Assembly (NCBI GenBank): GCA_046759445.1
Contig: JBHICG010000008.1
Span: forward strand, 15,239-79,238
Length of the DNA: 64,000 nt
From: Candidatus Scalinduaceae bacterium
GTDB taxonomy: Bacteria; Planctomycetota; Brocadiia; Brocadiales; Scalinduaceae
Direction of reading: 5' to 3'
The notes under the pieces are model-generated. The model did not search any database and was not told the DNA's origin. It worked only from the letters and a program-made list of their open reading frames with translations. The translations under genes were made by a program, and so were the position numbers. Positions 1,581-34,594 of the stretch are shown here, piece after piece. Numbering within the stretch: the stretch's first letter is position 1; each line of letters starts with the position of its first letter.

Positions 1581-4500
1581 ATGCCAAGGAATTTGAGGTG
1601 GAAAATACCATTGATAGCAATACTTATTGCCGTTACGATATATGCGATCTATCCACCGGCTGATAAGGTAATAAAGATGGAAGAGATTAAAGAGATAGAT
1701 GGTGAAGTTGTCGAACGCACCGTAACAAAGGATTCTTTTTTTCGGTTTATATATAGTAAACTAAAAGTAAGAGAAAATATTATAAAGAAAGAAACTGATG
1801 AAAAAGGCTCGAATATAATTCATAAGAATGTCGAATATTTCGCTAGAGGGCAAATAAAGCTTGGCCTAGATTTAAGAGGAGGTTCCGAGCTGTTATATAA
1901 GATAAAAGTGGAAGAAGGTGAATATCACACGGGTTTAACCAATGAGATAATAGCGGTCTTAGAAAAGAGGATTGATCCACGAGGTGTGTTAGAGTATAGA
2001 CTCCAGCAACAAGGTGCACGGAGGGTTCTTATACAGGTTCCTGGCGCAACCAAGAGTGAAACCGAAAATCTTAAGGAACGAATAACTCGTCTGGGAAAAC
2101 TAGAATTCAGACTCGCAGCTTCACCAGATAGCAGTGAATATAAAGATGCCAAAGAAGGGCAAACAGTACCCGGTTATTACAAACACTGGCTTAAGAAGAA
2201 AAGGGGAGAAGTAGGAGAGACTGAAGATTGGTTTCTGGTAAGAAACAAGATTGAGATGACCGGTGAACATCTTTCAAGACTTTATCCTGATCGTAAAGAT
2301 ATTCAACCTGTAGTGGGGTTCGAATTTGACCAGGTAGGAAGGGCTAAATTTGGACGTTTGACAGAACGTAATATTGGAAAACCCTTAGCAATTATTTTGG
2401 ATGGAGTTTTATACTCCGCTCCAGTAATACGTGACAGAATTCGAGGCAAAGGCATCATAGAAGGCAATTTCACTTCTGAAGAGGTTAATGACTTGATCGC
2501 AGTGATGCGTGCAGGTAGTCTGCCCGCAGACCTTGAATTAGAGATGGAAACCACAGTAGGTCCGAGTTTGGGAAGAGATTCGATAAAAAAAGGACTTACG
2601 GCAGGTCTGATTGGTGGAGTATTTGTCATACTATTCATGTGCACATATTATCTGGGTGCGGGCATAGTATCAAATATTGCCTTCATAGTAAACATAATTA
2701 TGGTCGTGGGAATTCTGTGTATACTGGAGGCAACACTAACACTTCCTGGTATTGCAGGCTTAGTATTGATGATTGGTATGGCCGTTGATGCAAATGTCTT
2801 AATTTATGAAAGAATCAGGGAAGAAAAAGAAAAAGGCAAGCCAATAAAACTTGCTGTTAAAAATGGATATGAAAGAGCCTTTACAACGATTGTCGACTCT
2901 AATGTAACTACCTTAATTACGGCAACTATTTTATACGCTGTGGGGACCGGGCCAGTGAAGGGGTTTGCTATAGTCCTGATCGTAGGTCTTTTGATTAATA
3001 TGTTTACGGCAGTATTTTTCACAAGAGTAATATTTGAAATACTTCTGGGAATTGGTTTTGTGCGAAAAATCTCGATGTTACAATTTTTCAGGAAACCCAG
3101 ATTGTCTTTTATTACTTATAGGCGTTTTTTTGCGATTGCTTCACTTATCTTAATTCTAATTGGTATCTCAGTGTTTGTAGTTAGAGGTAAGGATAATTAT
3201 GACATTGATTTTACAGGGGGAACCCTCATTCACATGAAGTTGAATAATCCAATACCTGTTGGTGATGTCAGGAATAAATTCTCAAATTTGGGCTATGAAG
3301 ATGCAGAGGTTCAAAGTATCTGGGCAAGTAAAGATATTGCTAAGACTAAAATAGATTCTACAGAATTTGGAATCAGGATTAAAAGCCTGAATAATGAAAA
3401 AACCAAACAAAAAATAACAAATGACCTGATGGGTGTAATAGATGAAGGACTGTTTAAAAGAATAGATTTTAACAAACCATATGATTTTAGTTTAATACTG
3501 GGTAGACCCATTGATGAATTCAAAATCCAGAACTATCTAAGAGAAGCTGACTACAGGAGAGATAATATCGTCTCGATATATCCTGTTGGAAAGACAGCTA
3601 AAAAATACTCAATAAATGTTTCCGGATTTACGAATAAAAAATTCAGACTTGATACAATAAAAAATCTGACTTCTATCCTTACAGATTATTTAGAAACATC
3701 AACGGTAGAACCTCTTTTTGGTGATATCAAAGAGGAGCTTCCGACTATAACTGATGCAGCAAGAGGAGCACAGTACAGAGCCATTTCAATTATGGATATA
3801 GATTTTAAAAAGGTCGTTGACCCTACAGTTTTACAAATGGTACTTAATGAAGAAGGCTATGCAGATATTGAAGTGTTTGCAAAGGAATCGGTTAGAGGGA
3901 AAACTTTTCGAAAGAAGCTGCAAATATCCGGGGCGCGAGATGTTTTAGAGCAAATAAAGCAAATGAGAGAGCCTATGAATATACCGTCCATTTTTGTAGA
4001 AGGTAATTCAATGATTCGAGTTGAGCTAAAGGAAGATATTGTAGAAGGTGCTTTAAGGAAGATGTTATCAAGCTCAAGCAAATTAAGAAAATTGGTTGGA
4101 GAAATCGCTGGAATTGGCGTTACCGCTGAAAAATATTCAATTAGTATGAATGATCTCACCGCAGAAAAAGTACAGGAAAAAATCAGGGAGGATATTGGAA
4201 ATACATTTGAACTTGATCTTTACATTGATAAAGCAAATGCCTCATCCCCTGACCCGTTTAAAAGGGTTGTTAGCATAGGCTCCACGGTTGCTAGTGAAAT
4301 GAAAAGCAGAGCCGCTCTTGCACTGCTTTTTGCTTGCTTTGCAATAATAATATATATATGGTTCAGATTTGGTGAGTTTAAATTTGGGGCAACCGCCGTG
4401 ATTACTCTTATCCACGATGTCTTAATCACCGTAGGCGCTGTAGCAATAGCCGACCATTTTGGAAATGTGTTTGGAGACATAAAAATAAATCTACCCATGA

Positions 4501-18679: not shown

Positions 18680-19345
18680 GACACTATTTGGGGGAGTAGG
18701 TATGGGATAAGAGTATTTAGTTTAAACAGTTTAAAACGTTCAAATCGCTTAAACAGTTTGAGCAGTTTGAACAATTTTAAAAAGGAGGGGGGGAAAGATG
18801 AGTGCAAGATATTTTGAAGATTTAGAAGTCTGGATACTCTCAAGAGAATTAACGAATAAAATCTACAATGTAAGCAATGACGGTAGATTCGCAAAAGATT
18901 TCGGACTCCGTGATCAGATAAGAAGAGCTGCTGTTTCCATTATGTCAAACATTGCAGAAGGATATGAAAGGGGCGGCAATCAGGAATTTATTCAGTTTTT
19001 GTCAATAGCCAAAGCCTCATGTGGAGAGGTGCGGTCACAGTTGTACGTCGCCATGGATCAAAGTTATGTTGGCAAAACAAAGTGTGAACAATTAATAGAC
19101 GAATTTAAGAAACTCTCCATCATGATTAACAACTTTATCGAATATCTAAAAGGTAGCAGATATAAAGGAATAAAGTATAAAAACAAAACGGTTTAAACCG
19201 CTTAAACCGTTTAAACGGCTCGAACGGTTCTTTAAGAGAATTGGGCAGAAACTATACTAAATATGTTTTGAGCAAAAAGAGTGTAAGTGTTTGTGATTAG
19301 TGAAAGAAATCCCCCATTTTCTTCACTTGCACATTCACTTACACA
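18650..19345 (+). repeat. direct duplication, copy 1 (WYL 3' end + four-helix-bundle module)
   Basis: Matches 20183-20920, starting at ATAAAAAAAATGAAGAAAATTTATCAGTAGGACAC. Confidence 0.9.
18798..19196 (+). CDS. four helix bundle protein (TIGR02436/IVP family), copy 1
   Basis: [24 protein letters not shown] and [16 protein letters not shown] motifs. Confidence 0.92.
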
Positions 19346-19459
19346 TTTTATATGAGCGAAAGCAGAGTTATTTAGACTTGTTATTAGCCTTGTGAATGGA
19401 TAACATAAACGGCTAAAGCTGAATTAATAGAGCAATGAGCTATAATAAGATTTAAGGAG

Positions 19460-19735
19460 GTGATTAATATGGTGATTATTGATAAGGAAAAAGTAAAAGA
19501 TATGTATTATGCCAATATGATGTGTGAGTATCACAAGGTAACGGAAAAGATCAGACTTTTCACAAGAAAATACTCGATGTCATTTGAACATTTTGAAAAG
19601 AACATAAAAGGATCTGAGAAAGAAGACTTTGAAAGGTGGGATGATTATATGGAATGGAAAGGGTATGAAAAAGTCTTACAGAATCTGATCAAAGAAAAGA
19701 AGGAGCTGGAAGTTGGAGATTATAAAGTGTCTTGA
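19460..19735 (+). CDS. putative antitoxin
   Basis: Small ORF overlapping the next gene; KYSMSFEHFE...WDDYMEWK pattern. Confidence 0.6.
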   Translation: MINMVIIDKEKVKDMYYANMMCEYHKVTEKIRLFTRKYSMSFEHFEKNIKGSEKEDFERWDDYMEWKGYEKVLQNLIKEKKELEVGDYKVS

Positions 19736-20048
19736 AAAAAGTAGTGCAGTCAAAGATTTTAAAATTCTAGTCCTTGAGTATTTTGAAGGCGGTTTCTACA
19801 TAAGAATTAAAGTCACATTGAATAACAATACTGAACTGTACATAAGGGAATACTCTGACGTTAATGTACGAAACTATTCATATCACTGGCAAGAACCAAA
19901 TCAGAAGTTATTGATCAGATGGGACAACTCAGCACATCACAAACATATTGAAACATATCCACATCATATTCATCATAGTAATAATGTCTTACCAAGTTAT
20001 CAAATCTCTTGCGAGGAAATATTAAAGATAATTGAAGAGAAAATCTGA
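19713..20048 (+). CDS. DUF6516-like putative toxin
   Basis: YSYHWQ..LIRWDNSAHH..TYPHHIH motif. Confidence 0.75.
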   Translation: MEIIKCLEKSSAVKDFKILVLEYFEGGFYIRIKVTLNNNTELYIREYSDVNVRNYSYHWQEPNQKLLIRWDNSAHHKHIETYPHHIHHSNNVLPSYQISCEEILKIIEEKI

Positions 20049-20182: not shown

Positions 20183-20920
20183 ATAAAAAAAATGAAGAAA
20201 ATTTATCAGTAGGACACTATTTGGGGGAGTGGGTATGGGATAAAGTATTTCTGTTTAAACAGTTCAAACGGTTAAAACAGTTTAAACGGTTTTAACTTTT
20301 TTGTTAGTTAAACCGCTTGAACAGTTTGAACAATTATAAAAAGGAGGTGGGAAAGATGAGTGCAAGATATTTTGAAGATTTAGAAGTCTGGATACTCTCA
20401 AGAGAATTAACGAATAAAATCTACAATGTAAGCAATGACGGTAGATTCGCAAAAGATTTCGGACTCCGTGATCAGATAAGAAGAGCTGCTGTTTCCATTA
20501 TGTCAAACATTGCAGAAGGATATGAAAGGGGCGGCAATCAGGAATTTATTCAGTTTTTGTCAATAGCCAAAGCCTCATGTGGAGAGGTGCGGTCACAGTT
20601 GTACGTCGCCATGGATCAAAGTTATGTTGGCAAAACAAAGTGTGAACAATTAATAGACGAATTTAAGAAACTCTCCATCATGATTAACAACTTTATCGAA
20701 TATCTAAAAGGTAGCAGATATAAAGGAACAAAGTATAAAAAGTCAAAAAATAAAATGGTTTAAACGGTTTAAACCGCTTAAACCGTTTAAACGGCTCGAA
20801 CGGTTCTTTAAGAGAATTGGGCAGAAACTACACGGAAAATGTTTTGAGTAAAAAGAGTGTAAGTGTTTGTGATTAGTGAAAGAAATCCCCCATTTTCTTT
20901 ACTTCACTCACACTTACACT
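20183..20920 (+). repeat. direct duplication, copy 2
   Basis: Matches 18650-19345; coding part identical by eye, repeat arms diverged. Confidence 0.9.
20356..20763 (+). CDS. four helix bundle protein, copy 2
   Basis: Identical to 18798 except the last ~10 codons; RBS AAGGAGG before ATG 20356. Confidence 0.92.
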
Positions 20921-21281
20921 AATTTCTGATTTTTGCATGAAGAACTAGAGAAATTAAAGAGCCCCCTTTAAAAAGAGGGGATTTAGGGGTGTGTTCCGAT
21001 GAGAAAGAACTAAGGAGTGGCTGAAGATTGGACAAAAGAAGTTTTAATAGATTTAATTAAATAAGATGTGTATGTGCATTGTGAAAGTAAATTACTTACC
21101 TAGTATCTGACTTCTGTGTTCTGTTGTCTGTCTTTTGATCACTTACACTTGTTTTTATGATGTATGAACCCCCAATGCTTCCTTGCCAAAAGTAGGCTCT
21201 GTAAGAGCGGAAGCAAGGAATGGGGGTGGATTTTTCGGGAATATGTATAAAAACAAAACATAGTTTCATTGCTATAAATAA

Positions 21282-23588
21282 ATGTTAAAAGATATTAAAC
21301 AACTTACAGAATTATATTTGCATTCTAATGGTTTATTGCCAGAAGACAAATCATGGAGTGATTTTCACGACGAACTGGTTCAAAATGCATCCAAAGATGC
21401 TATTGGACTTCTTGCGGATGCTAACCCGAAAGATAAATGTAAGTATGCATTGTTTATTGATATAGATACTCAAAATAAAAATTGTAATGTCAAATATAAG
21501 GGCTTTGATAATTTTGTGGAAATCGAAAAAGTAGATGATTGGTCAAGTCATCTATTTTGGCAAGGGTCAGGTGGAGCTCAGAGCGACAAAATCAGGAACA
21601 CACCACATAAATTCTTCGATGTTAAAGGTAAATTTTCTTCAAATAAACTTTTTGAGCCATTACAAATGATATTAGATAATTACTGCCAAGTTCAAGAGGG
21701 TAAAGGCAAGAATAAAAAATATAAAGAAACTGGCCCACTGTTTTGGGATAAAGACAAAAACAATGAGAGTAAATTGCTTAAGAATATAGTGAATATTTTG
21801 AGCAAGAATAAAGATGAAGTGAATAAACTTGTAAAGGGTGACGAGAAAAGCAAACCAAAAATACTAGGTAAATTTCCTTCGTTGAAACAGGGCGAGTCTG
21901 TTTTTGTTGGTTTAACCATTGACGGAAAACCAATTGGAGAATATGAATTATTTAGACGATATTTGTTATTTGTAAGAATAAGGGTAGGCATTCAAAAAGG
22001 GGCAGATAAGTTTAAATATAAGTTTTTCCCAGAGGTAAGTAGAGAATTGGGTATATGCCCTTCATGTCATAGGAATAAGCCTCTTTTAGACCAGTGGCAG
22101 GGTACAGCCGAATTATCTTTTTACCAGACAACTAATGAGAATCACCTCTCATATGCGTTTCCTGAATCAGCTTTTACATTCTGTCAAAGCTGTGCAGATT
22201 TGCTATTCATTTTCAAACAGCATTTACTTGAAGTCTTAACTCGAAAGTTGGGTGGTAATCAGTGCCTTATCTTACCATCTATTAAACTGATTCCTTCAGA
22301 TCAGAATGAAAAGAGAAGGCTTCTTGAAAATTTAAAAGATTTATGGGATTTATCTAGTAGCGATATTCAATCTAAAGAAAAGAGATTGTTATATAGACTC
22401 GGACAATTGCCGTCATATGCTACCGTAACATTTATCTTCGGTGATTATATTACTGTTGGCAAATCTCAAAATGTGAGGAGGCTGGATGAGCTTAATATTA
22501 TCTTCCCTGATGTTCTACCAAGTAGGCTTTCACAAATAGCAGGTGCAATACAGGAAACTAACACATACTTAAGTGCGATGTGGTCTTTAACAAGCAGAGA
22601 TTGGAATTGTACATGGTATGTCAGGGATGATTTTCATTTGCTTCAAAATTTATTCCATCCATCATGGGATGAAGATAAAAAGAATAAAGACAGGAATAGA
22701 AAACAATATAAAAGTTTGAGACGGCCGGAAATAGAACGATATCTAAGATCAATCTTTTATGGACAAGAGATTTCATATTGTGAAATAGCAGATGATTGCT
22801 ATTCAAACCTTTTGTCAGCCTTCAAAATAAGCAGAAGTAGCAGTAAAGATGATAACAACAGATATACGTTATCTAATTACATAGGGGACGTTCTATCTTT
22901 AATGGTTTTTATTAGTGAATTGAAAGATTTAGATCCCAATAAGGAGGTAGAAGATATGACGGAAAATAAAGAATTTGAACTTACAGCTATGCCGGAGCTG
23001 GGTAAGTTTGTTGAGATGCATCCTTTATTTAAGGATAGTCAATATCTTGCACCGTTTTTTGTCGGCTGTTTGTTCTCGTATGCAGAAAACCTGCAGAAAG
23101 ATAATAGCAGGTTGGCAGCGTACAATTGGCTAGGGACAATGACCTTGACATATGATGATATTTTGCAAGATGTTTACCACAAGACTCTAAAATACATTAA
23201 AAGTAGACCCAAGAAAGAAAGTATCATATCAAGTCCACGTCTTCAAGAACTTATTAAAGCAATTGCTTATTATGATAAAGGACGATGTGATAATGATAGA
23301 GTTGCATTGACGGCTTTTTGTCATGGGTGGTCTGTTGGACGAAGTTTTATTATGAAAAAAAATATTGTTAAAGCGATCAAGAAGAAAATAAATGAACTTA
23401 AAATTCAAATGAACGATGAAATCAAGAAATTTTTGGAAGCGAATAAAGAAAAAATAAACGCCAATGACAGTCAAATATTGGATGATTTTTTGAAGCTTAT
23501 CCCTGAAACTCAACAGCCTGAAATATCATCAATCTGGCAAAAGTCTAAAGAAAATAAAATTGACGAAGGAGGAGAATACAATGAGTAA
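21282..23588 (+). CDS. cas8b: type I-B large subunit Cas8b (Csh1/TM1802-like)
   Basis: First gene before cas7/cas5/cas3; CPSC...CQSC zinc-finger motif; size. Confidence 0.8.
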   Translation: MLKDIKQLTELYLHSNGLLPEDKSWSDFHDELVQNASKDAIGLLADANPKDKCKYALFIDIDTQNKNCNVKYKGFDNFVEIEKVDDWSSHLFWQGSGGAQSDKIRNTPHKFFDVKGKFSSNKLFEPLQMILDNYCQVQEGKGKNKKYKETGPLFWDKDKNNESKLLKNIVNILSKNKDEVNKLVKGDEKSKPKILGKFPSLKQGESVFVGLTIDGKPIGEYELFRRYLLFVRIRVGIQKGADKFKYKFFPEVSRELGICPSCHRNKPLLDQWQGTAELSFYQTTNENHLSYAFPESAFTFCQSCADLLFIFKQHLLEVLTRKLGGNQCLILPSIKLIPSDQNEKRRLLENLKDLWDLSSSDIQSKEKRLLYRLGQLPSYATVTFIFGDYITVGKSQNVRRLDELNIIFPDVLPSRLSQIAGAIQETNTYLSAMWSLTSRDWNCTWYVRDDFHLLQNLFHPSWDEDKKNKDRNRKQYKSLRRPEIERYLRSIFYGQEISYCEIADDCYSNLLSAFKISRSSSKDDNNRYTLSNYIGDVLSLMVFISELKDLDPNKEVEDMTENKEFELTAMPELGKFVEMHPLFKDSQYLAPFFVGCLFSYAENLQKDNSRLAAYNWLGTMTLTYDDILQDVYHKTLKYIKSRPKKESIISSPRLQELIKAIAYYDKGRCDNDRVALTAFCHGWSVGRSFIMKKNIVKAIKKKINELKIQMNDEIKKFLEANKEKINANDSQILDDFLKLIPETQQPEISSIWQKSKENKIDEGGEYNE
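22956..23588 (+). CDS. cas11: putative Cas11 translated from an internal start in cas8b
   Basis: AAGGAGGT at 22941 followed by an in-frame ATG at 22956. Confidence 0.65.
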   Translation: MTENKEFELTAMPELGKFVEMHPLFKDSQYLAPFFVGCLFSYAENLQKDNSRLAAYNWLGTMTLTYDDILQDVYHKTLKYIKSRPKKESIISSPRLQELIKAIAYYDKGRCDNDRVALTAFCHGWSVGRSFIMKKNIVKAIKKKINELKIQMNDEIKKFLEANKEKINANDSQILDDFLKLIPETQQPEISSIWQKSKENKIDEGGEYNE

Positions 23589-24963
23589 CAATTCAACTTT
23601 ATCTAACAGGCATGAGACATTATTTTTGTGGGAGGTCAGAAAAAGTAATCCCAATGGTGATCCAAGTGGAAATGAGCCACGTATAGACAGGCATACAAAG
23701 AGATGTGATGTAACTGATGTATGTATTAAAAGATCAGTTAGAGATTATATCAGTGTAAGAGAAGGACTTGATTCTTTATTGGTTACTAAACTTGGAACCG
23801 ATTTGTCTGAAACCGTGCGTGTTACTGACAGAATAATAGTTTATCTGTTTGGCACTCCGAAAAAAACAGAGGAGTCTAAAAAATTAGTTGAGACAACAAT
23901 TGCTGACAGATTAGATAAAGATAAAGAACCATACAAATCATTTCTTGAAAAAACCCCATCTTCAGCTACTTTGAAAGCTCTTATAAGTAACAAAAGAGAA
24001 GATAAGGAAAAGCTTAAAAAAATCGTAAAAGAAAATACACCAGTTGACAGTATCCAGAGAGACTTAATAAAAACTTTACGCTCATTTCTATGTGGTACTT
24101 TTAAAGATTTAAGAATGTTTGGAAGTGTTCTTGCCTTAGAGGATGATTTAAAAGCTTTAGGCGGAGATTTGACCGGTCCAATCCAGATAGAAGTTGGAAC
24201 ATCTTTACATCGTGTAGTGCATTCTAATAAGCAAATCACTAGTGTTATGGGTAGTAAAGAAGAACATGAAGCAGGAATAATTGGTGATACACATTGCATT
24301 GAATACGGTCTTTTTGCTACAAGCGCTATTGCTAATGAGAATGCAGCAAGGTTTACAGGGCTTGCTGATATAGACCATGAATTGTTCTTAAAGGCTTTAT
24401 GGCGTGGAACTCGTGACAGGCACACGCGAAGCAAGAATCAGGTACCAAGATTGTTGATTGATATTGAATATAACAAACCTTTCCATTTTGGGGATCTCGT
24501 TAATAGCGTCAAATTAAATCCAGTTGAGAGGAGTGGGAAACTACTTGACGAGGAAGCTTATAGAAGCATTGATGATTTTACAATGGATTTAACAAAGTTT
24601 TATGAAAAGATTAATTCCAAAAATGAAGCCATAAAATCTATAAAATTTGCTTCAAACGGACTTATAACTTTAGACGAGTTGAAAAATAAACTTAATAATG
24701 ATTTAAAGGATAAAGTCTGTGAAATTTCTGGTATTGATTTTGATTCAACAATAGAGATTGAGGTCAATGATTTTAGCGAAGATGCTAAAATGGTAATAGA
24801 AGGGGTTAAGGGAATCACATATTGCGAACCAAATAAAATAATCACTATTACAACAGGTTTAACGGAGGATATGTTTAAAAAGATTATTGAAAAACAAGCA
24901 TTACAACCTTATAAAGATGCCCTCCAAAAAGCTTATAATTCGCTAAAGGAAAAATTGAAATGA
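23581..24963 (+). CDS. cas7: Cas7 (Csh2-type), enlarged
   Basis: SNPNGDP..NEPRID, VTDVCIKRSVRDY, DLRMFG, TGPIQ and TRSK motifs; RBS GAAGGAGG before ATG 23581. Confidence 0.92.
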   Translation: MSNNSTLSNRHETLFLWEVRKSNPNGDPSGNEPRIDRHTKRCDVTDVCIKRSVRDYISVREGLDSLLVTKLGTDLSETVRVTDRIIVYLFGTPKKTEESKKLVETTIADRLDKDKEPYKSFLEKTPSSATLKALISNKREDKEKLKKIVKENTPVDSIQRDLIKTLRSFLCGTFKDLRMFGSVLALEDDLKALGGDLTGPIQIEVGTSLHRVVHSNKQITSVMGSKEEHEAGIIGDTHCIEYGLFATSAIANENAARFTGLADIDHELFLKALWRGTRDRHTRSKNQVPRLLIDIEYNKPFHFGDLVNSVKLNPVERSGKLLDEEAYRSIDDFTMDLTKFYEKINSKNEAIKSIKFASNGLITLDELKNKLNNDLKDKVCEISGIDFDSTIEIEVNDFSEDAKMVIEGVKGITYCEPNKIITITTGLTEDMFKKIIEKQALQPYKDALQKAYNSLKEKLK

Positions 24964-25673
24964 AAGTTTTGTTTTTCTTAATGCATGGCCGGTTTGCCCA
25001 TTTTTGTGCGCCATATACGAATGTTTACAGGTTGACTCAGCCATGCCCTACGAAAACAGCAATAATGGGCTTTATAGGTTCAGTATTAGGCATTGAAAAG
25101 GACGACTTGATCCTTTATCAAGAAATTCAATGCGGTTTAGAGATATGTAGTGAATATAGAACGGTTTCTATGCCGTATCTCACCCGTCAAGGATTTCCTG
25201 GAAGTGCAGCAAACAAAGAGTCTTCAAGAACATCTGTAGAAGTAATAGTTAATCCTAAATACAGAATATATATCACTGGGAATAGCGAATTACTTCTAAA
25301 AATTCACGATTTGATGATTCAGCAGAAGCCTGTCTTTACCCCCTATCTTGGACTTGCTCAATTTATAGCCAGCACGGATTTTCAGATTTCAGAACTTGTT
25401 GAAGGAGAATTAACAGAAGGGGTTGATTTAGCAGCAAAGGGTGCTTTTATGAGGGAGGTTCACGGAGAATTGGATTTTGAAAAAATCAACACTCTATCCA
25501 AAGAATGCAAGCTGAGGATAACTGAATTTGAAGGATTATGCGACATTAAACCTCCTAGAGATTTTGAGCATGCAGTTTTTACAGTAAATCTGGATGGCGG
25601 TACGGTCCCGCTTATAAATACGAAGGATATTTTGAAAATACCTGCATGGAATAAAAATGTGCCAATTTTCTGA
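24960..25673 (+). CDS. cas5: Cas5
   Basis: GRFAHF...PTKTAIMGFIGSVLG and PYLG motifs. Confidence 0.9.
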   Translation: MKVLFFLMHGRFAHFCAPYTNVYRLTQPCPTKTAIMGFIGSVLGIEKDDLILYQEIQCGLEICSEYRTVSMPYLTRQGFPGSAANKESSRTSVEVIVNPKYRIYITGNSELLLKIHDLMIQQKPVFTPYLGLAQFIASTDFQISELVEGELTEGVDLAAKGAFMREVHGELDFEKINTLSKECKLRITEFEGLCDIKPPRDFEHAVFTVNLDGGTVPLINTKDILKIPAWNKNVPIF

Positions 25674-28011
25674 TATAAAATCACATCCCGATTTACTCCT
25701 TGAAAAACATTTAACACAGGTCGCTGACATTGCAGTTGACCTTCTTGAAAATAAACAAGTATGTTTCCCATCTCTTAGCCTTACAAAAGAACACTTAAAA
25801 GAACTTGTTAAAAGGGCTGCACTGTTCCATGATTTAGGCAAGGCAACAACATATTTTCAAGAAAGATTAAAGACGGGTAAGAAATGGCCAAATGGCGAAC
25901 ATCAACATACTGGACTATCTGCCTTGCTTGCATATAAGCCTCTTATAACATACTGCATAGAAAATAATTTGGATAATTCAATTGCATTGGCTCCATTAAT
26001 GGCAGTGCAGTTTCATCATTCCGGATTCAAAAAAGAATTTCCAAATGATTCGGCAATGGATGCTCGTTTAAAAGAATTTAAGAAAGAATTTTTGACTTTA
26101 CAAACTTTAAAAGATGTGGGGATGACTAATGAGGTAATCTCAATAGACCCGATTAAAGTAGATTGTGGTTTTGAAAACCTTTTTTCAGATATGTCAGCTT
26201 TTAGTGATGAGCAAAAAATTGAGTTTCGCTTATTGTTTTTATTTATCTTTTCTCTTTTATTAGAGGCAGACAAGGCATATCTTGCGGTAAAAAACAAGGA
26301 ATTATACCAGCGGAAACCCGTAAAAATTGATCCTATAGTTATTGATAATTATAAAGCTAAAGTATTTAAAAATAAAAATGCAAAGATAAACAATGACAGG
26401 GAGAAGGCTTATAAAGAAGTTTTGACTGGGTTGAATGCTCTTGATTTGAATAATCATATATATAGGCTTACTCTCCCTACAGGTATGGGCAAGACCTTAT
26501 TGGCTGCATCATGGGCAATTAAGCTACGAAATAAAATGCAAAATGAACTCGGTATTACTCCACAAATTATTACGACATTACCGTTTCTCTCAATTATTGA
26601 CCAGACGGCAAAGGCATATGAGGAATTTCTCAACAATCCTGATGAAGAGATGTTTCTTAAGACTCATTCCCTTTCATCTTTTGATTTCAATGGTTATGAA
26701 GCCAATACAGCAGAATTTTTTGTAAATATATGGAAATCACAAATTGTGATGACCACTTTTGACCAATTATTGTATGCCTTTTTCAGCGATAAGCCGAAGC
26801 ATCTTATGAGATTTCATAACCTTTTAAATAGCATAATCATTATGGACGAAGTACAAGCATTGCCACCACATCTTTGGCACCCGTTTTCGACTTTTATTAG
26901 ATACATAACTGATTTAGGCAAAAGTCACCTATTGCTTATGTCTGCAACGCAACCTCAAATAATAGATTCAGCAATAGAGCTAGTGCCTTCTGTATCTGAG
27001 AATAATGAAATCAAGGGGGCTGAAAGATTTTTTGAGAAACTATCCAGATATAAGTTGCTATTGAAACATCAAGACAGTAAAAGCATAGATGAATTTATCA
27101 GTGAGATGAGAGATAGACTTTCTAAGATGGATGAAGACAAGATTATGGTCGTTCTTAACACACGCGATTCAGCCAAGCAAGTTTATGAAAATCTTAAAGA
27201 TGTTGCAAAGGACAGAGAGACTTATTTTCTTTCATCATATGTGATTCCTTTTGAGCGATTGGATAGAGTTGAGAGGATTAAGAATTCAAAACGAGCATTA
27301 GTTATAACTACTCAATGCATTGAAGCAGGGGTGGATATTGATATGGATTATGTAATCCGCGACTTTGGACCCTTGGATTCAATTATTCAGGTTGCCGGAA
27401 GATGCAACAGGGAAGGCGAAAAAGCAATGCGGACGGTTGAAATTGTAAGATTATATGATCCTGAGGCAAAAAGTAGATTTTGTCCGAGTGGAGAATTCAA
27501 TGCAATGGTTTATGATCAACTTGCTATTAATGCAACCGCTGACATATTTGGTAAAAGCAAGGAAATTTCAGAAAATCAAATTTTCGACCTGGCAATAAAA
27601 TATTTTAATGAACTAAAGCGTAAGGATTTGGGCAAGAATAGAACAGAATGCCTCTTAGATTTTTCTCATAAATATCTGAAGAATGGAAGGCAGCATAAAT
27701 TTGATATAAAGTCAGAACTGAGAGGAGAATTGAAACAGTATAATTTAATAGTTGATAAATATGCTTCTGAGTTGAAAAAAGAAATAGAACAGATTTTTAA
27801 GGAAGATATAGACCGATGGGTACGGAGAAGAAAATTAAAAGAACTTTCTAGTAAGATTTCAATGAGCTCTATATCCGTAAATGCTTACAAGTTTAATCCA
27901 GACGATATAGCAGACAAGGGTAAAGGCGACTTTTATTTCTTAGAGTCAAGATATTACGATGATGAGATTGGATTTAACTACAGGACTCCATTAGGAACAA
28001 TTATAATATGA
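25657..28011 (+). CDS. cas3: Cas3 HD nuclease-helicase
   Basis: HDLGK, LPTGMGKT, DEVQ, MSAT, TQCIEAGVDID and QVAGRCNR motifs. Confidence 0.96.
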   Translation: MCQFSDIKSHPDLLLEKHLTQVADIAVDLLENKQVCFPSLSLTKEHLKELVKRAALFHDLGKATTYFQERLKTGKKWPNGEHQHTGLSALLAYKPLITYCIENNLDNSIALAPLMAVQFHHSGFKKEFPNDSAMDARLKEFKKEFLTLQTLKDVGMTNEVISIDPIKVDCGFENLFSDMSAFSDEQKIEFRLLFLFIFSLLLEADKAYLAVKNKELYQRKPVKIDPIVIDNYKAKVFKNKNAKINNDREKAYKEVLTGLNALDLNNHIYRLTLPTGMGKTLLAASWAIKLRNKMQNELGITPQIITTLPFLSIIDQTAKAYEEFLNNPDEEMFLKTHSLSSFDFNGYEANTAEFFVNIWKSQIVMTTFDQLLYAFFSDKPKHLMRFHNLLNSIIIMDEVQALPPHLWHPFSTFIRYITDLGKSHLLLMSATQPQIIDSAIELVPSVSENNEIKGAERFFEKLSRYKLLLKHQDSKSIDEFISEMRDRLSKMDEDKIMVVLNTRDSAKQVYENLKDVAKDRETYFLSSYVIPFERLDRVERIKNSKRALVITTQCIEAGVDIDMDYVIRDFGPLDSIIQVAGRCNREGEKAMRTVEIVRLYDPEAKSRFCPSGEFNAMVYDQLAINATADIFGKSKEISENQIFDLAIKYFNELKRKDLGKNRTECLLDFSHKYLKNGRQHKFDIKSELRGELKQYNLIVDKYASELKKEIEQIFKEDIDRWVRRRKLKELSSKISMSSISVNAYKFNPDDIADKGKGDFYFLESRYYDDEIGFNYRTPLGTIII

Positions 28012-28691
28012 AAATATTGAGTTGTGTTGTCCGGTTGTATTTTGATAATTCAACTGACGATCTAGATATTCAATCTAAAGACCTGCGTGGCGCTATTGCA
28101 TACCTTTATCCCAATGAAATACTTCTTCATCAACATTTGGAAGATGGCACACTGAAATATAATTATCCTATTGTTCAATACAAATATGTTAATAAGAAAT
28201 GCCTTATTGTAGGCATTGAAAAAGGAGCAAAGGTTATTAATAATCTAAATTTGATCGGAGAAATAATTATATTGTCTCATCAAAAATATAAGATTTTAAA
28301 AAAAGATATAATGTTTCAAGAATCATCATATAGCACAACAAAGAAAATGGTATCTTATTCTTTACTAACCCCCTGGCTAGCGTTGAATGAGAAGAATTAT
28401 GAGAAATATCAAAAACTAGGAAGTTGGCAGAAAAGGAAAGAGCTTTTGTGTAAAATTCTCATTGGTAATATTATTTCCATGTCAAAGAGTTTGGGATATA
28501 CCGTGCCAGAAGCAATCATGGCAAACATTAGTAAACTCGAAGAAGTTCGAACATCTTTAAAGGGCACTCCAATGCTAGGATTCCTAGGCACTTTCTCCGT
28601 AAACTTCGAGATACCTGATTACTGGGGGATTGGTAAATCGGTGTCAAGGGGGTTTGGGACGATTAAGCGAGTTGATGGGTTTAATCGTTGA
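28008..28691 (+). CDS. cas6: Cas6 (Cas6b-like) endoribonuclease
   Basis: YPIVQYK, TPWLALN and the C-terminal GIGKSVSRGFG loop. Confidence 0.92.
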   Translation: MKILSCVVRLYFDNSTDDLDIQSKDLRGAIAYLYPNEILLHQHLEDGTLKYNYPIVQYKYVNKKCLIVGIEKGAKVINNLNLIGEIIILSHQKYKILKKDIMFQESSYSTTKKMVSYSLLTPWLALNEKNYEKYQKLGSWQKRKELLCKILIGNIISMSKSLGYTVPEAIMANISKLEEVRTSLKGTPMLGFLGTFSVNFEIPDYWGIGKSVSRGFGTIKRVDGFNR

Positions 28692-28721
28692 AGAAATGAA
28701 TTTCCAGATCAGGAAATTGTC

Positions 28722-29231
28722 ATGCAAAATATGGAAGTTATACCCCAACAAGCAATCGAAAGTAAGATATACATCATTAGAGGCAGAAAGGTGATGTTGG
28801 ACAGAGACCTGGCAATTCTTTATGCAGTTGAAACGAAAATGCTCAATCGCGCTGTCAAAAGAAATGTAGAACGTTTTCCAGAAGACTTTATGTTTCAATT
28901 GACGAAAAAAGAATACGTTGAACTTTTAAGGTGCCAATTTGGTACCTTAAAAAGAGGACAGCACAGTAAATATCTTCCATATGCTTTTGCAGAAAACGGC
29001 GTGGCAATGCTATCAAGCGTCTTGAATAGTCAGAGAGCTATACAGGTAAATATTCAAATTATGAGAACGTTTACAAAAATCAGGGAAATGCTTGCTACAC
29101 ATAAAGAATTAAAACAAAAGATTGAAGAAATGGAAAAGAAATACGATTATCAATTTAAGGTTGTTTTTGACGCTATAAAACAGTTAATAGAACCTCCGAA
29201 GAAATCCAGAAAAAGGATAGGTTTTAAGTAA
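28722..29231 (+). CDS. ORF6N-domain DNA-binding protein
   Basis: [33 protein letters not shown] and [16 protein letters not shown] motifs. Confidence 0.9.
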
Positions 29232-29284
29232 AAAACGATGTAATAATATTGTTAAATATTAGATCAGATATTAGAGTAGATAAA

Positions 29285-29479
29285 ATGTTTGGACCACCTA
29301 AAAACATAGAAGGACAATGTAATGCACATTGTTATATTGCAGATGATTACAGAGATAATCATGCAACAATAAGATGTCAGCTTCTGCCAAATCATAAGGG
29401 TAAGTATAAAGAAGTTAGTCGAGAAGGAAAATTAATAATCGAATGGGAAGAAGATGAAAGAGAACGTGAGTCAGCTTGA
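29285..29479 (+). CDS. small hypothetical Cys/His-containing protein
   Basis: ORF in the cas operon; start uncertain (29249 or 29285). Confidence 0.45.
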   Translation: MFGPPKNIEGQCNAHCYIADDYRDNHATIRCQLLPNHKGKYKEVSREGKLIIEWEEDERERESA

Positions 29480-29500
29480 ACTGTTTAAACTGCTGAAACG

Positions 29501-29570
29501 GAGTGTAAGTGTATGTGGTCAGTGAAAGTAAATTACTTACAGCTTTCACCTACACTCTTCACTTACACTA
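29501..29570. repeat. empty 6-mer-arm hairpin module (AGTGTA)n/(TACACT)n
   Basis: GAGTGTAAGTGTATGTGGTCAGTGAAAGT-AAATT-ACTTACAGCTTTCACCTACACTCTTCACTTACACT. Confidence 0.75.
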
Positions 29571-29604
29571 TAAATCTAACATCTATATTCTATTTCTAAA
29601 AACC

Positions 29605-30576
29605 ATGCAACTCGTAATCAACACTTACGGTTCTTATCTTCGAAAGAAGGAAGGTTGCTTCCTTGTTAAAAATGAGGATGGTGAGTTCGACGTATCTGTA
29701 AAAAAGGTGGATAGTATTATGATTACGACAAGTTCTTATCTTTCCACTGACGCAATAAAGATGGCAATGGATAATAACATTGACGTTATCTTCCTTGATG
29801 ATTATGGAGACCCTTACGGCAGGGTGTGGCATTCAAAACTTGGAAGTACCGTTGCAATAAGACGCAAACAACTGGAAATGACATCTAACGAAAAAGGCCT
29901 GAATATGGCCAAGGAATGGATAATAGCAAAACTAGACAATCAGATTGAGTTCCTTACTAAACTAAAAAACTCAAGACCAGAAAAAGAGTCCAAATTAAAT
30001 GAATATAGTTCAAGACTGGGAGAAACAAAGGAAAAATTGGGAAAACTGACAGGTACAATTGATGAAAAAAGAAACACAATAATGGGACTCGAAGGTTCTG
30101 CAGGCAGGACTTATTTTGAAGCCATTAATTACGTCATGCCAGATAGATATAAATTCGATGGAAGAAGTAAGCAACCAGCAAAGGATGAATTTAATTGTCT
30201 CCTCAACTACGGATATGGTGTCCTTTATTCAATAGTTGAAAAGGCGTGCATTATAGCAGGACTCGATCCTTACGTTGGTTTCGTTCACACTGATAATTAT
30301 AATAAGAAATCACTCGTATTCGACCTGATAGAGATGTTTAGAATTTTTGTAGACCAGACGGTTGTCTATCTCTTCAGTCAAAGGCAAGTAAAACAGGAGT
30401 ATTTTGACAAAATAAAGAATGGATTGACTCTGAATAAAGAAGGAAAGGCTGTGCTGATAGAGGCGCTTAATAAGACCTTTGACAAGAGTGTCAGGTACAA
30501 GGGAAGAAATATAAAGAATAAAAATATAATTCAGTTTGAGTGCCATGCGATAGCGAATGGGATTATCAAGTGTTAG
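29605..30576 (+). CDS. cas1: Cas1
   Basis: MGLEGSAGRTYF, NCLLNYGYGVL, GLDPYVGFVH and SLVFDLIEMFR motifs; ATG 29605. Confidence 0.96.
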   Translation: MQLVINTYGSYLRKKEGCFLVKNEDGEFDVSVKKVDSIMITTSSYLSTDAIKMAMDNNIDVIFLDDYGDPYGRVWHSKLGSTVAIRRKQLEMTSNEKGLNMAKEWIIAKLDNQIEFLTKLKNSRPEKESKLNEYSSRLGETKEKLGKLTGTIDEKRNTIMGLEGSAGRTYFEAINYVMPDRYKFDGRSKQPAKDEFNCLLNYGYGVLYSIVEKACIIAGLDPYVGFVHTDNYNKKSLVFDLIEMFRIFVDQTVVYLFSQRQVKQEYFDKIKNGLTLNKEGKAVLIEALNKTFDKSVRYKGRNIKNKNIIQFECHAIANGIIKC

Positions 30577-30659
30577 TATAAGTAAATGGTGTAAGTGATA
30601 GGTGAAAGTGTAAGTGAATCGTATCGTTTAAGTGTATAGTGATAAGAAGGGAGATAGAG

Positions 30660-31031
30660 ATGAATGTTGATATCAAAAGTGTTGAGGATCTGGATGTTTT
30701 CAAAATGGCTCATGAACTGGTATTGAAAATATATAAGATTACAAAAAAGTTTCCTGACGAAGAGAAGTTTGGTTTAGTTTCACAAATGAGAAGAGCTGTA
30801 TCATCAGTACCCATGAATTTAATGGAAGGTGGACACCGTCTTTCTTCAAAAGAGTACCGTCAATTTGCAGGCATAGCGAACGGTTCTATAGGTGAATTTA
30901 AATATCATATACTTTTATCTAAAGACCTCAAATATCTATCAAACGATATTTACCATGAATTAAGAAATACAGCAGAAGAAATTAGCAAGATGTTAATGGG
31001 ATTAATAAAATCCCTTTCAAAGAAGCAGTAA
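30660..31031 (+). CDS. four helix bundle protein between cas1 and cas2
   Basis: EDLDVF, FPDEEKFGLVSQMRRAVSSVPMNLMEG motifs; enclosed by inverted 6-mer repeat arms. Confidence 0.9.
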   Translation: MNVDIKSVEDLDVFKMAHELVLKIYKITKKFPDEEKFGLVSQMRRAVSSVPMNLMEGGHRLSSKEYRQFAGIANGSIGEFKYHILLSKDLKYLSNDIYHELRNTAEEISKMLMGLIKSLSKKQ

Positions 31032-31135
31032 ATTTCGTTTTTTAGAAATGAAAGAATTTCTGTCTATAGAATTTAACTATAACCTAAAGGCATATTCACC
31101 AATACTTACACTTACACCGAACACATACACTATAA

Positions 31136-31427
<292 letters not shown>

Positions 31428-31429
<2 letters not shown>

Positions 31430-31523
31430 TGAAAGTGTTTTGTGTAAGTGTCAGTGATTTTACTTACACACATACGCTTATTATTACAACTTCACTTTCA
31501 CTCTTACACTTACACCTACACTA
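31428..31523. repeat. empty 6-mer-arm hairpin module between cas2 and cas4
   Basis: AGTGAAAGTGTTTTGTGTAAGTGTCAGTG ... CACTTTCACTCTTACACTTACACCTACACT. Confidence 0.75.
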
Positions 31524-31529
31524 TCAGAA

Positions 31530-32147
31530 ATGAATACGGCAGAAACACAAGGAATTTATGTTACACCATCCGAGGTAATAGAGTATCTATATTGTCCGAG
31601 GTTTATTTATTTTATGAACTGCCTCTGTATTCCCCAGCATGAGGAACAAAGATATAAGGTAATTAAAGGCAGGGAATTACACGATGAGAGAAAGAATATA
31701 AATAAGTCTTATCTGCGAAAAAAATTGAAATGTGTCGAAAAGGATATAGATGTCTATATGTCTTCTGATAAATATCATTTAAAGGGTGTGGTGGACGAAG
31801 TTTTGTACCTTGAAGATGGGACATTGGCGCCATTAGACTATAAGTTTGCTGAATATCGTGAAACGCTTTTTAAGACGCACAAGTATCAGTCGGTTCTATA
31901 TGCAATCTTGATTAAAGAAAATTACAAGAAAAACGGTTCAGACAATATTGAAGTAAAGAAGGGTTTTGTTTGTTACACTAGAAGCAAAAATTTAATAAAG
32001 GAAATCAAGTATAGCGAAAAGGATTTCAAGATGGCCACAAATGCTATATCGGAGACTCTGAATATAATACAAAGTGGCCACTATCCGAAAAAGACCAGAT
32101 ATTTATCAAAATGTATTGATTGCTGCTATAGAAATATCTGTGTATAA
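31530..32147 (+). CDS. cas4: Cas4
   Basis: YCPR, GVVD, PLDYK and C-terminal CxxCxxxxxC motifs. Confidence 0.94.
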   Translation: MNTAETQGIYVTPSEVIEYLYCPRFIYFMNCLCIPQHEEQRYKVIKGRELHDERKNINKSYLRKKLKCVEKDIDVYMSSDKYHLKGVVDEVLYLEDGTLAPLDYKFAEYRETLFKTHKYQSVLYAILIKENYKKNGSDNIEVKKGFVCYTRSKNLIKEIKYSEKDFKMATNAISETLNIIQSGHYPKKTRYLSKCIDCCYRNICV

Positions 32148-32469
32148 ATTAGCTCTCTTCGGTGGCTAATTTTTTTAAATCGCAAATAAAAATACGTGTA
32201 GGGTGGGGTGGATCTACTAACAAGCAGATAATAAGGCAATACAATTACTTAGTGAACTTCTAAAAGACATAAATGATGTTAATTTATAATACTTTTGTGT
32301 AGTTAACAACGTAAACATTTGTTATTAAATGGTATAAGAATTGGGAAACCATGTAACGTAGTTAAAAAAGGATTGATTTATGACAAAAAAGCAAAGGGAA
32401 TTACTGGAAATAATGCTTTCTAAAAGAATATCAAGTTGTAATGTTTACTACCCTTGCACAAAAAGTGCG
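32148..32469 (+). promoter_or_regulatory. CRISPR leader
   Basis: AT-rich noncoding stretch between cas4 and the first repeat; the degenerate repeat is at the far end. Confidence 0.75.
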
Positions 32470-34594
32470 GTATGAATAGTTAATCCATTAAAACAAGGAT
32501 TGAAACTTGTAGGCGCCGCATAAAGTTTTAAAATTTGTTTCGTATGAATAGTTAATCCATTAAAACAAGGATTGAAACTCAGGAGGATGGCAGAGTCGTT
32601 GACTACGTCCTCATGGTATGAATAGTTAATCCATTAAAACAAGGATTGAAACACGCACGTGTGGCAATGAGAGACCAGACTGCATATAGTATGAATAGTT
32701 AATCCATTAAAACAAGGATTGAAACTGTATCTGAAATTCTTAGTGGTAAGAGAGATATATCGTATGAATAGTTAATCCATTAAAACAAGGATTGAAACGT
32801 GATTCAGGGATTATCAATTCCTCAATTCTTTAATTTGTATGAATAGTTAATCCATTAAAACAAGGATTGAAACTGTCATGAGGACTGCCCCAAGAGGCCA
32901 CGACTTCATGTATGAATAGTTAATCCATTAAAACAAGGATTGAAACGATATCTTCCTTGCGATCATAAACGCCACGCCGTTAAGTATGAATAGTTAATCC
33001 ATTAAAACAAGGATTGAAACGACAATAATATGACATTGCTTTCACCCCCTTCATGAGTATGAATAGTTAATCCATTAAAACAAGGATTGAAACTGAATGC
33101 TGATTACGCATTCTCAAACTACATATATGTATGAATAGTTAATCCATTAAAACAAGGATTGAAACGATGGAACAAATGACTAGATGGAGTTCGATATCTT
33201 TGTATGAATAGTTAATCCATTAAAACAAGGATTGAAACACTGGACTGATCCTGTCACGGATGCGACTTTAGCTTTGTATGAATAGTTAATCCATTAAAAC
33301 AAGGATTGAAACTCAAATTGTTTCCCTGTGTAACATTTTGCAATTTGAGTATGAATAGTTAATCCATTAAAACAAGGATTGAAACTCTTATTCTGCCATG
33401 CATCTTGTTTTGTAACATGAGGTATGAATAGTTAATCCATTAAAACAAGGATTGAAACTAGTTCTTGTTGGTCAAAAAGGGATAAACCAAGAAAGTATGA
33501 ATAGTTAATCCATTAAAACAAGGATTGAAACTTTTATAGTGTGATCCCAACTTTCCGTGCTTTTTATGTATGAATAGTTAATCCATTAAAACAAGGATTG
33601 AAACTCTTCACCTTTAAGAGCCGTAATGAACAGGATACGTTGTATGAATAGTTAATCCATTAAAACAAGGATTGAAACCCCCTTCTATCATCTCTACCTT
33701 TTCCTGCATTAAATGTATGAATAGTTAATCCATTAAAACAAGGATTGAAACATATTTGTGCCAGGCGTTCCTCCTGCATCTATCTGTGTATGAATAGTTA
33801 ATCCATTAAAACAAGGATTGAAACGCCAACCTCCTAATAATATCTTCAGATTTGAACGATAGTATGAATAGTTAATCCATTAAAACAAGGATTGAAACCC
33901 CAGCGAGGCAAGTCGAGTGTACCCGCTTTCAATTTGTATGAATAGTTAATCCATTAAAACAAGGATTGAAACTAGACGACCTCTACCGGCAGATCAGCAC
34001 ACATAGATAGTATGAATAGTTAATCCATTAAAACAAGGATTGAAACTGGCATTATCGCACCAGATTTTAGCTAAATAATCATCGTATGAATAGTTAATCC
34101 ATTAAAACAAGGATTGAAACTTAATAGATACCTCAATAAATGGGGTGTAGAGAAGAGTATGAATAGTTAATCCATTAAAACAAGGATTGAAACGATACTG
34201 ATATAACGGCATCCGCTTCTACGGAATACGTATGAATAGTTAATCCATTAAAACAAGGATTGAAACAAAGATTCACTCTTCATCAAATCGTTTTGTTGGT
34301 TTTGTATGAATAGTTAATCCATTAAAACAAGGATTGAAACATGTTCCAGAGGGGATGACTATCAATGAAATATTCGGTATGAATAGTTAATCCATTAAAA
34401 CAAGGATTGAAACACAAATCTCCTTGAAACCCTTTCGAAACAGTTTGATGTATGAATAGTTAATCCATTAAAACAAGGATTGAAACAATAATCCCTGAAT
34501 CCCTGAATTCCTAAATTCTTAAAGTATGAATAGTTAATCCATTAAAACCCCAAAAATCACATTCGTGACTAACGAAGCGGGCAAGGATTGAAGC
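32470..34594 (+). CRISPR. CRISPR array: 28 intact 37-bp repeats + 1 interrupted terminal repeat, 28 spacers of 35-38 bp
   Basis: Repeat GTATGAATAGTTAATCCATTAAAACAAGGATTGAAAC counted by eye; ATTGAAAC 3' handle. Confidence 0.98.

Follow-up and report, generated by a model that had tools for sequence, protein, structure and literature searches.

Two spacers of a type I-B CRISPR array in a Scalinduaceae bacterium appear to sample one site of a palindromic tandem-repeat element

Few of the CRISPR spacers of Porphyromonas gingivalis have any match, and among these few, spacers similar to the own genome and to insertion sequences predominate, which has been read to mean that CRISPR limits DNA from related cells and the transposition of mobile elements (Watanabe et al. 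2013, PMC3698921). In the type I-B system of Haloarcula hispanica, priming tolerates 23 variants of the protospacer-adjacent motif (PAM), TTG is an interference-proficient PAM, and the protospacer that primes yields new spacers on either flank (Li et al. 2014, PMC4066796). Here, we analyzed a type I-B array on contig JBHICG010000008.1 of a Candidatus Scalinduaceae bacterium (assembly GCA_046759445.1), which lies in a stretch of 64,000 nucleotides (nt; positions 15,239 to 79,238 of the contig) referred to as the window in the following. Two of its 28 spacers, spacer 5 and spacer 28, carry the repeat units of a short palindromic element with arms of tandem 8-mers.

The locus shares features with several described systems. 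As in P. gingivalis, a minority of the spacers match repeated or mobile DNA of the lineage's own chromosomes and not phages; here, however, the target is a gene-less palindromic element of about 125-160 nt instead of an insertion sequence, no exact match was found, and the two spacers overlap at one site (PMC3698921). The H. hispanica system is of the same I-B subtype, and an old imperfect spacer can drive captures nearby there (PMC4066796), whereas at our locus priming is a possibility suggested by an overlap and two differences between spacers separated by 22 positions. The intervening sequence of the Coxiella burnetii 23S rRNA with its S23p gene (PMC4990558) resembles the gene-carrying form of the element in that a PF05635 gene is enclosed by complementary arms able to form a long stem. 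Unlike in Coxiella, the spacers match gene-less copies between protein-coding genes and not in rRNA, the arms are tandem 8-mers, and gene-less copies outnumber gene-carrying ones tens to one. Repetitive extragenic palindromic (REP) sequences and palindromic repeats of the type known as MITE (for miniature inverted-repeat transposable element; PMC3184786) are likewise short, multi-copy, intergenic, hairpin-forming and found at unrelated loci, but our element has no terminal inverted repeats in the alignment and no linked transposase, and its arms are internally tandem-repetitive. With self-targeting spacers, the two spacers have in common the resemblance to the host's own chromosome; they differ in their 5 and 12 mismatches and in the lack of a near-exact self match. 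Self-targeting CRISPR spacers were reportedly treated by Stern et al. in 2010. In the excerpts of the literature on Scalindua CRISPR and on MITE-derived or self-targeting spacers we found no published spacers against tandem-repeat hairpin elements, and a literature search on PF05635 cassettes returned no description of a PF05635 hairpin cassette outside rRNA genes.

Cutting the array by script at its 37-nt repeat yielded 28 spacers, and the coordinates and sequences that an earlier note on this DNA had given for spacers 5 and 28 proved exact. Its description of the two was likewise borne out. Spacer 28 is an 8-mer tandem repeat, in which Tandem Repeats Finder (TRF) detects a period-8 array of 3.4-4.2 copies at 34490-34523. 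The fraction of bases identical to the base 8 nt further on is 0.79 in spacer 28 and 0.60 in spacer 5, compared to at most 0.43 in the other 26 spacers. In a two-unit model of the repeat family, built on the unit AATYCCYN or its complement and with 14 specified positions, spacer 28 scored 14/14, spacer 5 scored 13/14 and 12/14 on its two strands, and all others reached 10 at most. The scoring of spacer 5 on both strands indicates that it consists of a left arm followed by the complementary right arm. Between them, the two spacers contain runs of RATTNRGG and of complementary CCYNAATY units, as expected for parts of a palindromic element with 8-mer arms. Positions 2-15 of spacer 28 are the reverse complement of positions 3-16 of spacer 5. 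This 14-nt match, also reported in the earlier note, is the longest reverse-complement word among the 378 spacer pairs (runner-up 9 nt), and a shared word of this length occurred in 0 of 200 mononucleotide shuffles of the spacers, where the maximum was 13 nt, seen once.

Both spacers map best to one and the same module in a relative of the host, G013. The first 24 nt of spacer 28 match a module on G013:C236 with one mismatch (33/37 over the full length). The clearly best match of spacer 5 among all fetched loci is this same module, with 33 of 35 columns identical and one gap, across the arm-to-arm center, so that its junction with the 3-4-nt loop corresponds to that of a real copy. Because the G013 locus had been fetched using spacer 28 alone, the match of spacer 5 is an independent result. 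On the G013 copy, spacer 28 corresponds to L088 1488-1524 on the minus strand and spacer 5 to L088 1510-1544 on the plus strand; the two protospacer sites overlap by 15 nt, head to head on opposite strands, at the hairpin loop. The 14-nt match takes in the non-repetitive loop; it therefore represents this protospacer overlap and does not result from a coincidental pairing of repeat units. Spacer 5 is also similar to copies in the relatives G005, G016 and G027, and the center sequence is exact in five copies of four relatives, namely G005, G013 (two copies), G016 and G027. Allowing up to two mismatches, the subfamily center was found among species representatives in none of the three genomes of the host genus, in none of the four of g2, in 5 of the 20 of g3 and in the single genome of g4.

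The two spacers have the variant GGGATTAT in common, where the five exact-center copies have GGAATTAT. In their 17-column overlap they differ twice, at position 1 of spacer 28 (or by a one-base deletion that shifts the PAM) and at position 16. Judging from these comparisons, the two captures appear to represent one site of one element subfamily and not two random samples of the repeat family. The earlier note had regarded them as two captures at widely separated times. The separation in time stands, as the spacers are the oldest and the fifth newest of the array; their independence as samples of the family does not, given the overlap of about 15 nt at one subfamily center. In the copies of the relatives, the 5' flank is TTG at the site of spacer 28 and TCA or TTA at the site of spacer 5. 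TCA, TTA, TTG and TTN are all among the I-B PAMs in Table 1 of Vink et al. 2021 (PMC8482600), and TTG and TCA or TTA may likewise have been the PAMs of the actual protospacers, if the homologous copies are a guide.

The search for the spacers in host, metagenome and viral sequences that the earlier note had proposed yielded no exact protospacer. When the complete set of 28 spacers was compared with the host genome by BLAST, partial matches were obtained for spacers 5 and 28 alone, and the other 26 remained at background. The best ungapped host match of spacer 28 (C7:30879-30915, minus strand) has five mismatches, at positions 7, 11, 19, 25 and 33, and a 5' TTG; that of spacer 5 has 12 mismatches, which equals the background of the other 26 spacers (10-14). 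Thus, a host match with three or fewer mismatches, as expected for self-targeting, is absent from the assembly, which is 97% complete in 145 contigs. Among the 27 family relatives, neither the full spacers nor the 24-nt core of spacer 5 had a match with up to three mismatches. IMG/VR contained no match for the full spacers, their 20-nt cores or the 23-nt subfamily center, and the JGI metagenomes none for the 28-nt core of spacer 5. The 20-nt core of spacer 28 retrieved 70 loci from these metagenomes on many unrelated contigs, with a best full-length match of 33/37, and the octamer is widespread. Queried with the whole array in distant mode, the INPHARED phage and PLSDB plasmid collections yielded no match. 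The remaining 26 spacers matched nothing at E <= 0.05 in all 185 fetched loci (0.83 Mb), so that no PAM could be derived from them. Of the words sampled from the array region, a fraction of 0.12-0.48 is present in three sequencing runs of a single study, but none of their contigs was placed on window positions 32780-32855, and these runs are uninformative on the source of the spacers.

The element itself is about 125-160 nt long and comprises two complementary arms of 8-nt units (RATTNRGG / CCYNAATY), a 3-4-nt loop and conserved flanks. When the host genome was scanned for three consecutive 8-nt units, we found 30 arm arrays, one of which is spacer 28 itself. The other 29 are distributed over 20 loci, at 10 of which both arms were above the threshold. 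In total, the arms account for 856 nt of the 3.62 Mb, i.e. about 0.02%. The statement of the earlier note that the window has no other 8-mer module was confirmed by TRF and by the genome-wide scan, which had no other match on contig C8. Most of the host modules are hairpins without a gene: the left arm (RATTNRGG units) directly joins the complementary right arm. Their folding energies range from -12 to -36 kcal/mol, and they occur in intergenic spacers of an Mrp antiporter operon and of a two-component signaling cluster. Folding of 12 host modules on both strands showed the given strand to be stabler in eight and the opposite one in four (by 0.2-1.8 kcal/mol), a difference too weak for use in a choice between an RNA and a DNA hairpin.

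Octamer arms were detected in 25 of the 28 genomes of the Scalindua family, compared to 0-4 matches per strand of a reversed control pattern, and a BLAST search with a 176-nt query around the G013 copy had matches in 26 of the 28 (16 in the host, 34 in G013 and 25-35 in five relatives). The identity among copies is 91-92%, both within G013 and between G013 and G027, which belongs to a different genus. In an alignment of 12 copies from nine genomes, the conserved flanks outside the arms consist of a TTGACC...GGCAAAAATTTC stretch at one end and, at the opposite end, of TATAAT with a small CCGACTCGTTCGG hairpin after it. The contexts of the closest copies are unrelated to each other: a sugar-modification (polysaccharide) gene cluster, fliW and flagellin genes, a DAHP synthase gene, and the interval that separates a serine-recombinase gene from an ORF6N gene. 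For the neighbor genes of the G013 copy, the host has no close homologue (25-35% identity only), so that no comparison of an empty with an occupied site was possible. The flanks of the element are non-palindromic and look like parts of a split promoter (L088 1425-1600 and 11 further copies): one carries TTGACC, the other TATAAT together with the small hairpin and a purine-rich stretch that precedes the downstream gene. In three of the 12 aligned copies, a GC-rich mini-hairpin of about 25 nt is nested within an arm.

Arms of the family are also found on viral contigs. In IMG/VR, we detected arms of at least 3.6 units at 38 loci on 29 contigs. On one of these, L151 (56% G+C), gene-less modules at 2468-2535 and 4093-4170 bracket a tail-sheath gene (phrog_23, E 3e-42). 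Both modules are AT-rich and intergenic, and this pair, with a spacing of 1.6 kb, turns up on six viral contigs. For spacer 28, the best similarity on viral contigs ranged from 26/28 to 30/32, and for spacer 5 it was 29/34. The contigs thus show arms at the level of the family only, and neither phages nor plasmids yielded a sequence from which the spacers could directly derive. Using two proteins of the window as tblastn queries, we found no PF05635 relatives in the 38 viral loci. The arm-bearing viral contigs are not phages of this host. The 8-mer modules can accordingly ride on phages; a phage as the source of these two spacers is not thereby shown. The suggestion of the earlier note that such modules ride on invaders holds in principle, considering the 29 viral contigs, the exact-center copy of G027 between a resolvase and an ORF6N gene and the absence of the subfamily from the host genus, but it lacks an exact protospacer anywhere.

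Based on these data, we propose that both spacers were taken from the center of one element subfamily by ordinary I-B adaptation, most likely from non-self DNA, and that the second capture was perhaps primed; for this account as a whole we see an even chance. Cas1-Cas2-Cas4 would have cut both prespacers from the arm-to-arm center of the multi-copy palindromic element, adjoining a 5' TTG in the case of spacer 28 and a 5' TCA or TTA in the case of spacer 5. Probable sources are a phage, a mobile element or the DNA of a different Scalindua-family lineage, in each case with a copy of the element. As the host matches are poor and the subfamily is absent from the host genus, we infer a source nearer to the copies of other lineages than to those of the host. 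Subsequently, the target would have escaped spacer 28 by changing at position 1, which is the PAM edge, and at position 16, and spacer 28, although mismatched, would have primed the acquisition of spacer 5. Alteration of the PAM edge is a classic escape from a type I system. Priming of spacer 5 by spacer 28 after such an escape would fit the overlap and the two differences, and we put it forward tentatively, as a possible but somewhat doubtful step.

Several points weigh against this account. An exact protospacer of either spacer was found neither in the host nor in the 27 relatives, IMG/VR, the JGI metagenomes, INPHARED or PLSDB, and the source, the PAMs and the type of replicon are read from homologous copies with at least four differences. 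The closest copies are mostly located in ordinary chromosomal contexts, one alone being mobile-element-like, and the arm-bearing viral contigs mostly have 48-68% G+C and lack the matching subfamily (no matches to the 23-nt center). The host assembly is fragmented (145 contigs, 97%) and may miss an unassembled self copy of the element. In addition, two narrow pattern tests revealed no second array with such a spacer. The first, ATTGAAAC followed by 2.6 right-arm units within 16 nt, had two matches in GTDB species genomes, neither of which lies in a CRISPR array; the second, a left-arm version applied to 401 Planctomycetota genomes, had 0 matches and is a weak test, as spacer 5 itself would fail the pattern. 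Regarding the priming step, the two differences between the spacer sites are equally explained by two paralogous copies, 22 spacers lie between captures 5 and 28, and an overlap of two protospacers within an element of about 100 nt is not very improbable once both derive from the same element (rough estimate about 1 in 4).

One alternative is that a chromosomal copy of an ancestor supplied both spacers, perhaps through stalling of replication or cutting at the hairpin, by which DNA ends would reach the adaptation machinery, and that autoimmunity was survived by mutation or loss of a dispensable copy. In favor of this, the host has 29 arm arrays at 20 loci, including the intergenic spacers of the Mrp antiporter operon and the two-component cluster, the modules fold into hairpins of the energies given above, and a non-essential element makes survivors without the copy plausible. 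Moreover, spacer 28 is identical to a host copy with a 5' TTG flank at 32/37 positions, and the spacers share AT-rich unit variants with host copies, including exact matches of 18-19 nt at C7:30939-30957 and C7:35819-35836. Yet the host match of spacer 5 does not exceed background (12 mismatches), the matching subfamily occurs in 0/3 genomes of the host genus, and with its Cas3 system intact the lineage would have had to escape lethal self-targeting two times in succession. Spacer 5 also holds the junction intact and was not generated from an end at the hairpin center. Overall, we consider a self-derived origin unlikely.

Equally improbable in our view are two independent captures without priming, in which different invaders or different copies each yielded a spacer from the conserved center. 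The multi-copy nature of the element, the conservation of its center in at least five copies of four genomes, the presence of TTN or TCN triplets in each 8-nt unit on both strands, the two disagreements in the overlap and the distance of 22 spacers are all compatible with such captures. On the other hand, two of 28 spacers (7%) fall on the same 60 nt, which is far above the density of arms in the host (0.02%) or on the one phage contig examined (about 1%, two modules of about 70 nt in 10.4 kb), and both spacers share GGGATTAT at the place where all five exact-center copies carry GGAATTAT.

The earlier note had further supposed that the modules generate DNA ends or extrachromosomal forms. If the modules themselves excised or broke, free ends or circles might be sampled preferentially by Cas1-Cas2. 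Spacer 28, judged on the G013 copy, does start inside the hairpin loop, copies are found at unrelated loci in different genomes, and a gene-carrying cassette that two genomes share at one locus has opposite orientations in them. However, an excised form, an empty site or a joint was seen nowhere for the 8-mer family, and the preceding PAM accounts equally well for where spacer 28 begins. Spacer 5 spans the junction, which is intact in its interior, so that this prespacer did not end there. We found no evidence for the supposition and regard excision as very improbable. Finally, a chance resemblance of two low-complexity spacers in an AT-rich window (36% G+C) has practically no probability and is excluded, as none of the 200 shuffles reaches the 14-nt word, only two of 28 spacers fit the unit model, a shuffled genome gave one arm array compared to 30 observed, and one module in a relative is matched by both spacers.

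The 8-mer element is linked to genes of the family PF05635, of which the host genome contains 17. Most of these genes lie visibly between complementary tandem-repeat arms, and the sequence of the unit differs from cassette to cassette. At G000:C53:5762-6076 (G000 being the host assembly), the gene is enclosed by 8-mer arms; the element is the gene-less form of a hairpin cassette that encloses a PF05635 gene and is present in one copy per genome. Among 30 PF05635 loci in five relatives, three have clear 8-mer arms on both sides and 25 have none, while the remaining two were flagged on one side only and appear to belong to other arm families. The three armed cassettes, G011:C68, G016:C125 and G013:C263, are the counterparts of the host cassette on C53. 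A genome thus seems to hold one gene-carrying 8-mer cassette together with tens of gene-less copies. In a side-by-side view of G000:C53:5700-6170 and G011:C68:75230-75700 (L166), the cassette abuts the 3' end of the same neighbor gene in opposite orientation. It looks as if it had been flipped by recombination between its inverted arms.

The three PF05635 genes of the window have 9-mer and 6-7-mer arms. The 9-mer cassettes show the same design as the 8-mer modules, their arm family being unrelated, and gene-less modules with 6-7-mer arms (GTGTAAG/CTTACAC type) are present at about 19270-19350 and 20855-20930. According to the earlier note, the CRISPR system may be directed against relatives of elements that sit within its own operon. 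This applies only loosely: the arms at the operon are unrelated 9-mers and 6-7-mers, the four-helix-bundle proteins of the cas-operon cassettes are 28-40% identical to the protein inside the 8-mer arms, and spacer 5 comes from a gene-less module.

A broader scenario would be that gene-less modules and their parent four-helix-bundle cassettes are mobile among Scalindua-family lineages and their phages or mobile elements, that an incoming copy is handled as an invader by the I-B system, and that the two spacers are the fossil of an interference event, an escape through the loss of one base at the PAM edge and a primed re-capture at the center of the element. We think this rather improbable in its entirety. 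A CRISPR record is one of few means to tell from sequences alone whether hairpin elements arrive on foreign DNA. The record described here is suggestive, with two overlapping captures from a subfamily without copies in the host genus and with arms of the family on phage contigs. If the modules do travel, CRISPR arrays could be mined for where this largely undescribed family of cassettes moves. The present array is a single case, in which one site was sampled twice and the source DNA was not found. It adds one more instance of spacers that resemble repeats of their own lineage, for which a history of escape and priming is plausible but unproven.

The features of the window that are relevant to this analysis are compiled in Table 1. 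The gene for a hydrazine-synthase alpha-domain protein in the host genome (3.62 Mb in 145 contigs, 37% G+C, 97% completeness) is consistent with an anammox bacterium of the Scalindua family. The cas genes constitute a type I-B system, with the effector genes and the adaptation genes cas1, cas2 and cas4 in one operon. Pfam matches include Cas_TM1802 (E-value 2e-27), Cas7 (2e-50), Cas5 (7e-9), Cas1 (4e-85) and Cas2 (5e-23), as well as the HD and helicase domains of Cas3, Cas6b N and C, and Cas4/PDDEXK. Two extra genes are lodged in the operon, an ORF6N gene (1.5e-33) and a PF05635 four-helix-bundle gene (23S_rRNA_IVP, 3e-37). A Cas10 gene was not found in the 97%-complete host genome; there was no Cmr2 match, and a Csm1 match remained below threshold (23 bits). 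Targeting of DNA by the I-B complex is therefore the relevant mode, and RNA-level targeting through a type III system that shares the array was rejected on these grounds.

Table 1 Coordinates of the CRISPR array, the cas operon and the PF05635 cassettes in the window
Feature	Position	Strand	Description
PF05635 cassette	18719..19225	+	complementary 9-mer arms; gene 18798-19196
PF05635 cassette, second copy	20253-20805		9-mer arms; gene 20317-20763
Type I-B cas operon	21282..32147	+	gene order cas8b, cas7, cas5, cas3, cas6b, ORF6N gene, cas1, PF05635 gene, cas2, cas4 (Pfam)
ORF6N gene	28722-29231		between cas6b and cas1
PF05635 four-helix-bundle gene	30639-31031		between cas1 and cas2
Leader (presumed)	32148..32469	+	AT-rich, 322 nt, between cas4 and first repeat; probable entry end for new spacers
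CRISPR array	32470..34486	+	28 identical 37-nt repeats ending ATTGAAAC, spacers 1-27 between
Spacer 5	32799..32836	+	38 nt; two left-arm units, 3-nt center, 2.5 right-arm units, corresponding to the arm-to-arm center of a gene-less 8-mer module
Spacer 28 (oldest)	34487..34523	+	37 nt; right arm read outward from hairpin loop
Degenerate terminal repeat	34524..34594	+	first 25 nt 34524-34548, 33-nt insert 34549-34581, last 13 nt 34582-34594 (one substitution)

The regular array adjoins the operon, and its repeats end in the octamer ATTGAAAC, which we take to be the 8-nt 5' handle that Cas6b generates in type I-B systems. The role of the leader is suggested by its position and by the degenerate repeat at the opposite end of the array. 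As leader and cas genes lie to the left and the degenerate repeat to the right, the age of the spacers increases from spacer 1, the newest, through spacer 5, which ranks fifth, to spacer 28, the oldest.

Additional observations concern the surroundings of the array. Between 18650 and 20805, the two near-identical 9-mer cassettes are each preceded by the same stretch of about 60 nt, the 3' end of a WYL-domain gene, and a TumE-family toxin gene (19713-20048) with a small upstream open reading frame lies between them. This arrangement looks like a duplication that trapped a toxin-antitoxin pair. The ORF6N gene of the cas operon is 61% identical to the ORF6N gene of G027 (L092 1640-2173), which is located directly downstream of the exact-center 8-mer copy and the serine-recombinase gene on a small contig; the likeness is possibly a vestige of some mobile unit. 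At G000:C15:34379-34704, the host has a second, small CRISPR array with 5-6 repeats of a different 37-nt sequence, at a distance of 4 kb from another PF05635 cassette; the octamer structure is absent from all of its spacers. Within the main array, spacer 12 (33313-33348) carries an 8-nt inverted repeat at its two ends, possibly by chance, and the 33-nt insert that splits the terminal repeat holds a small inverted repeat of its own.

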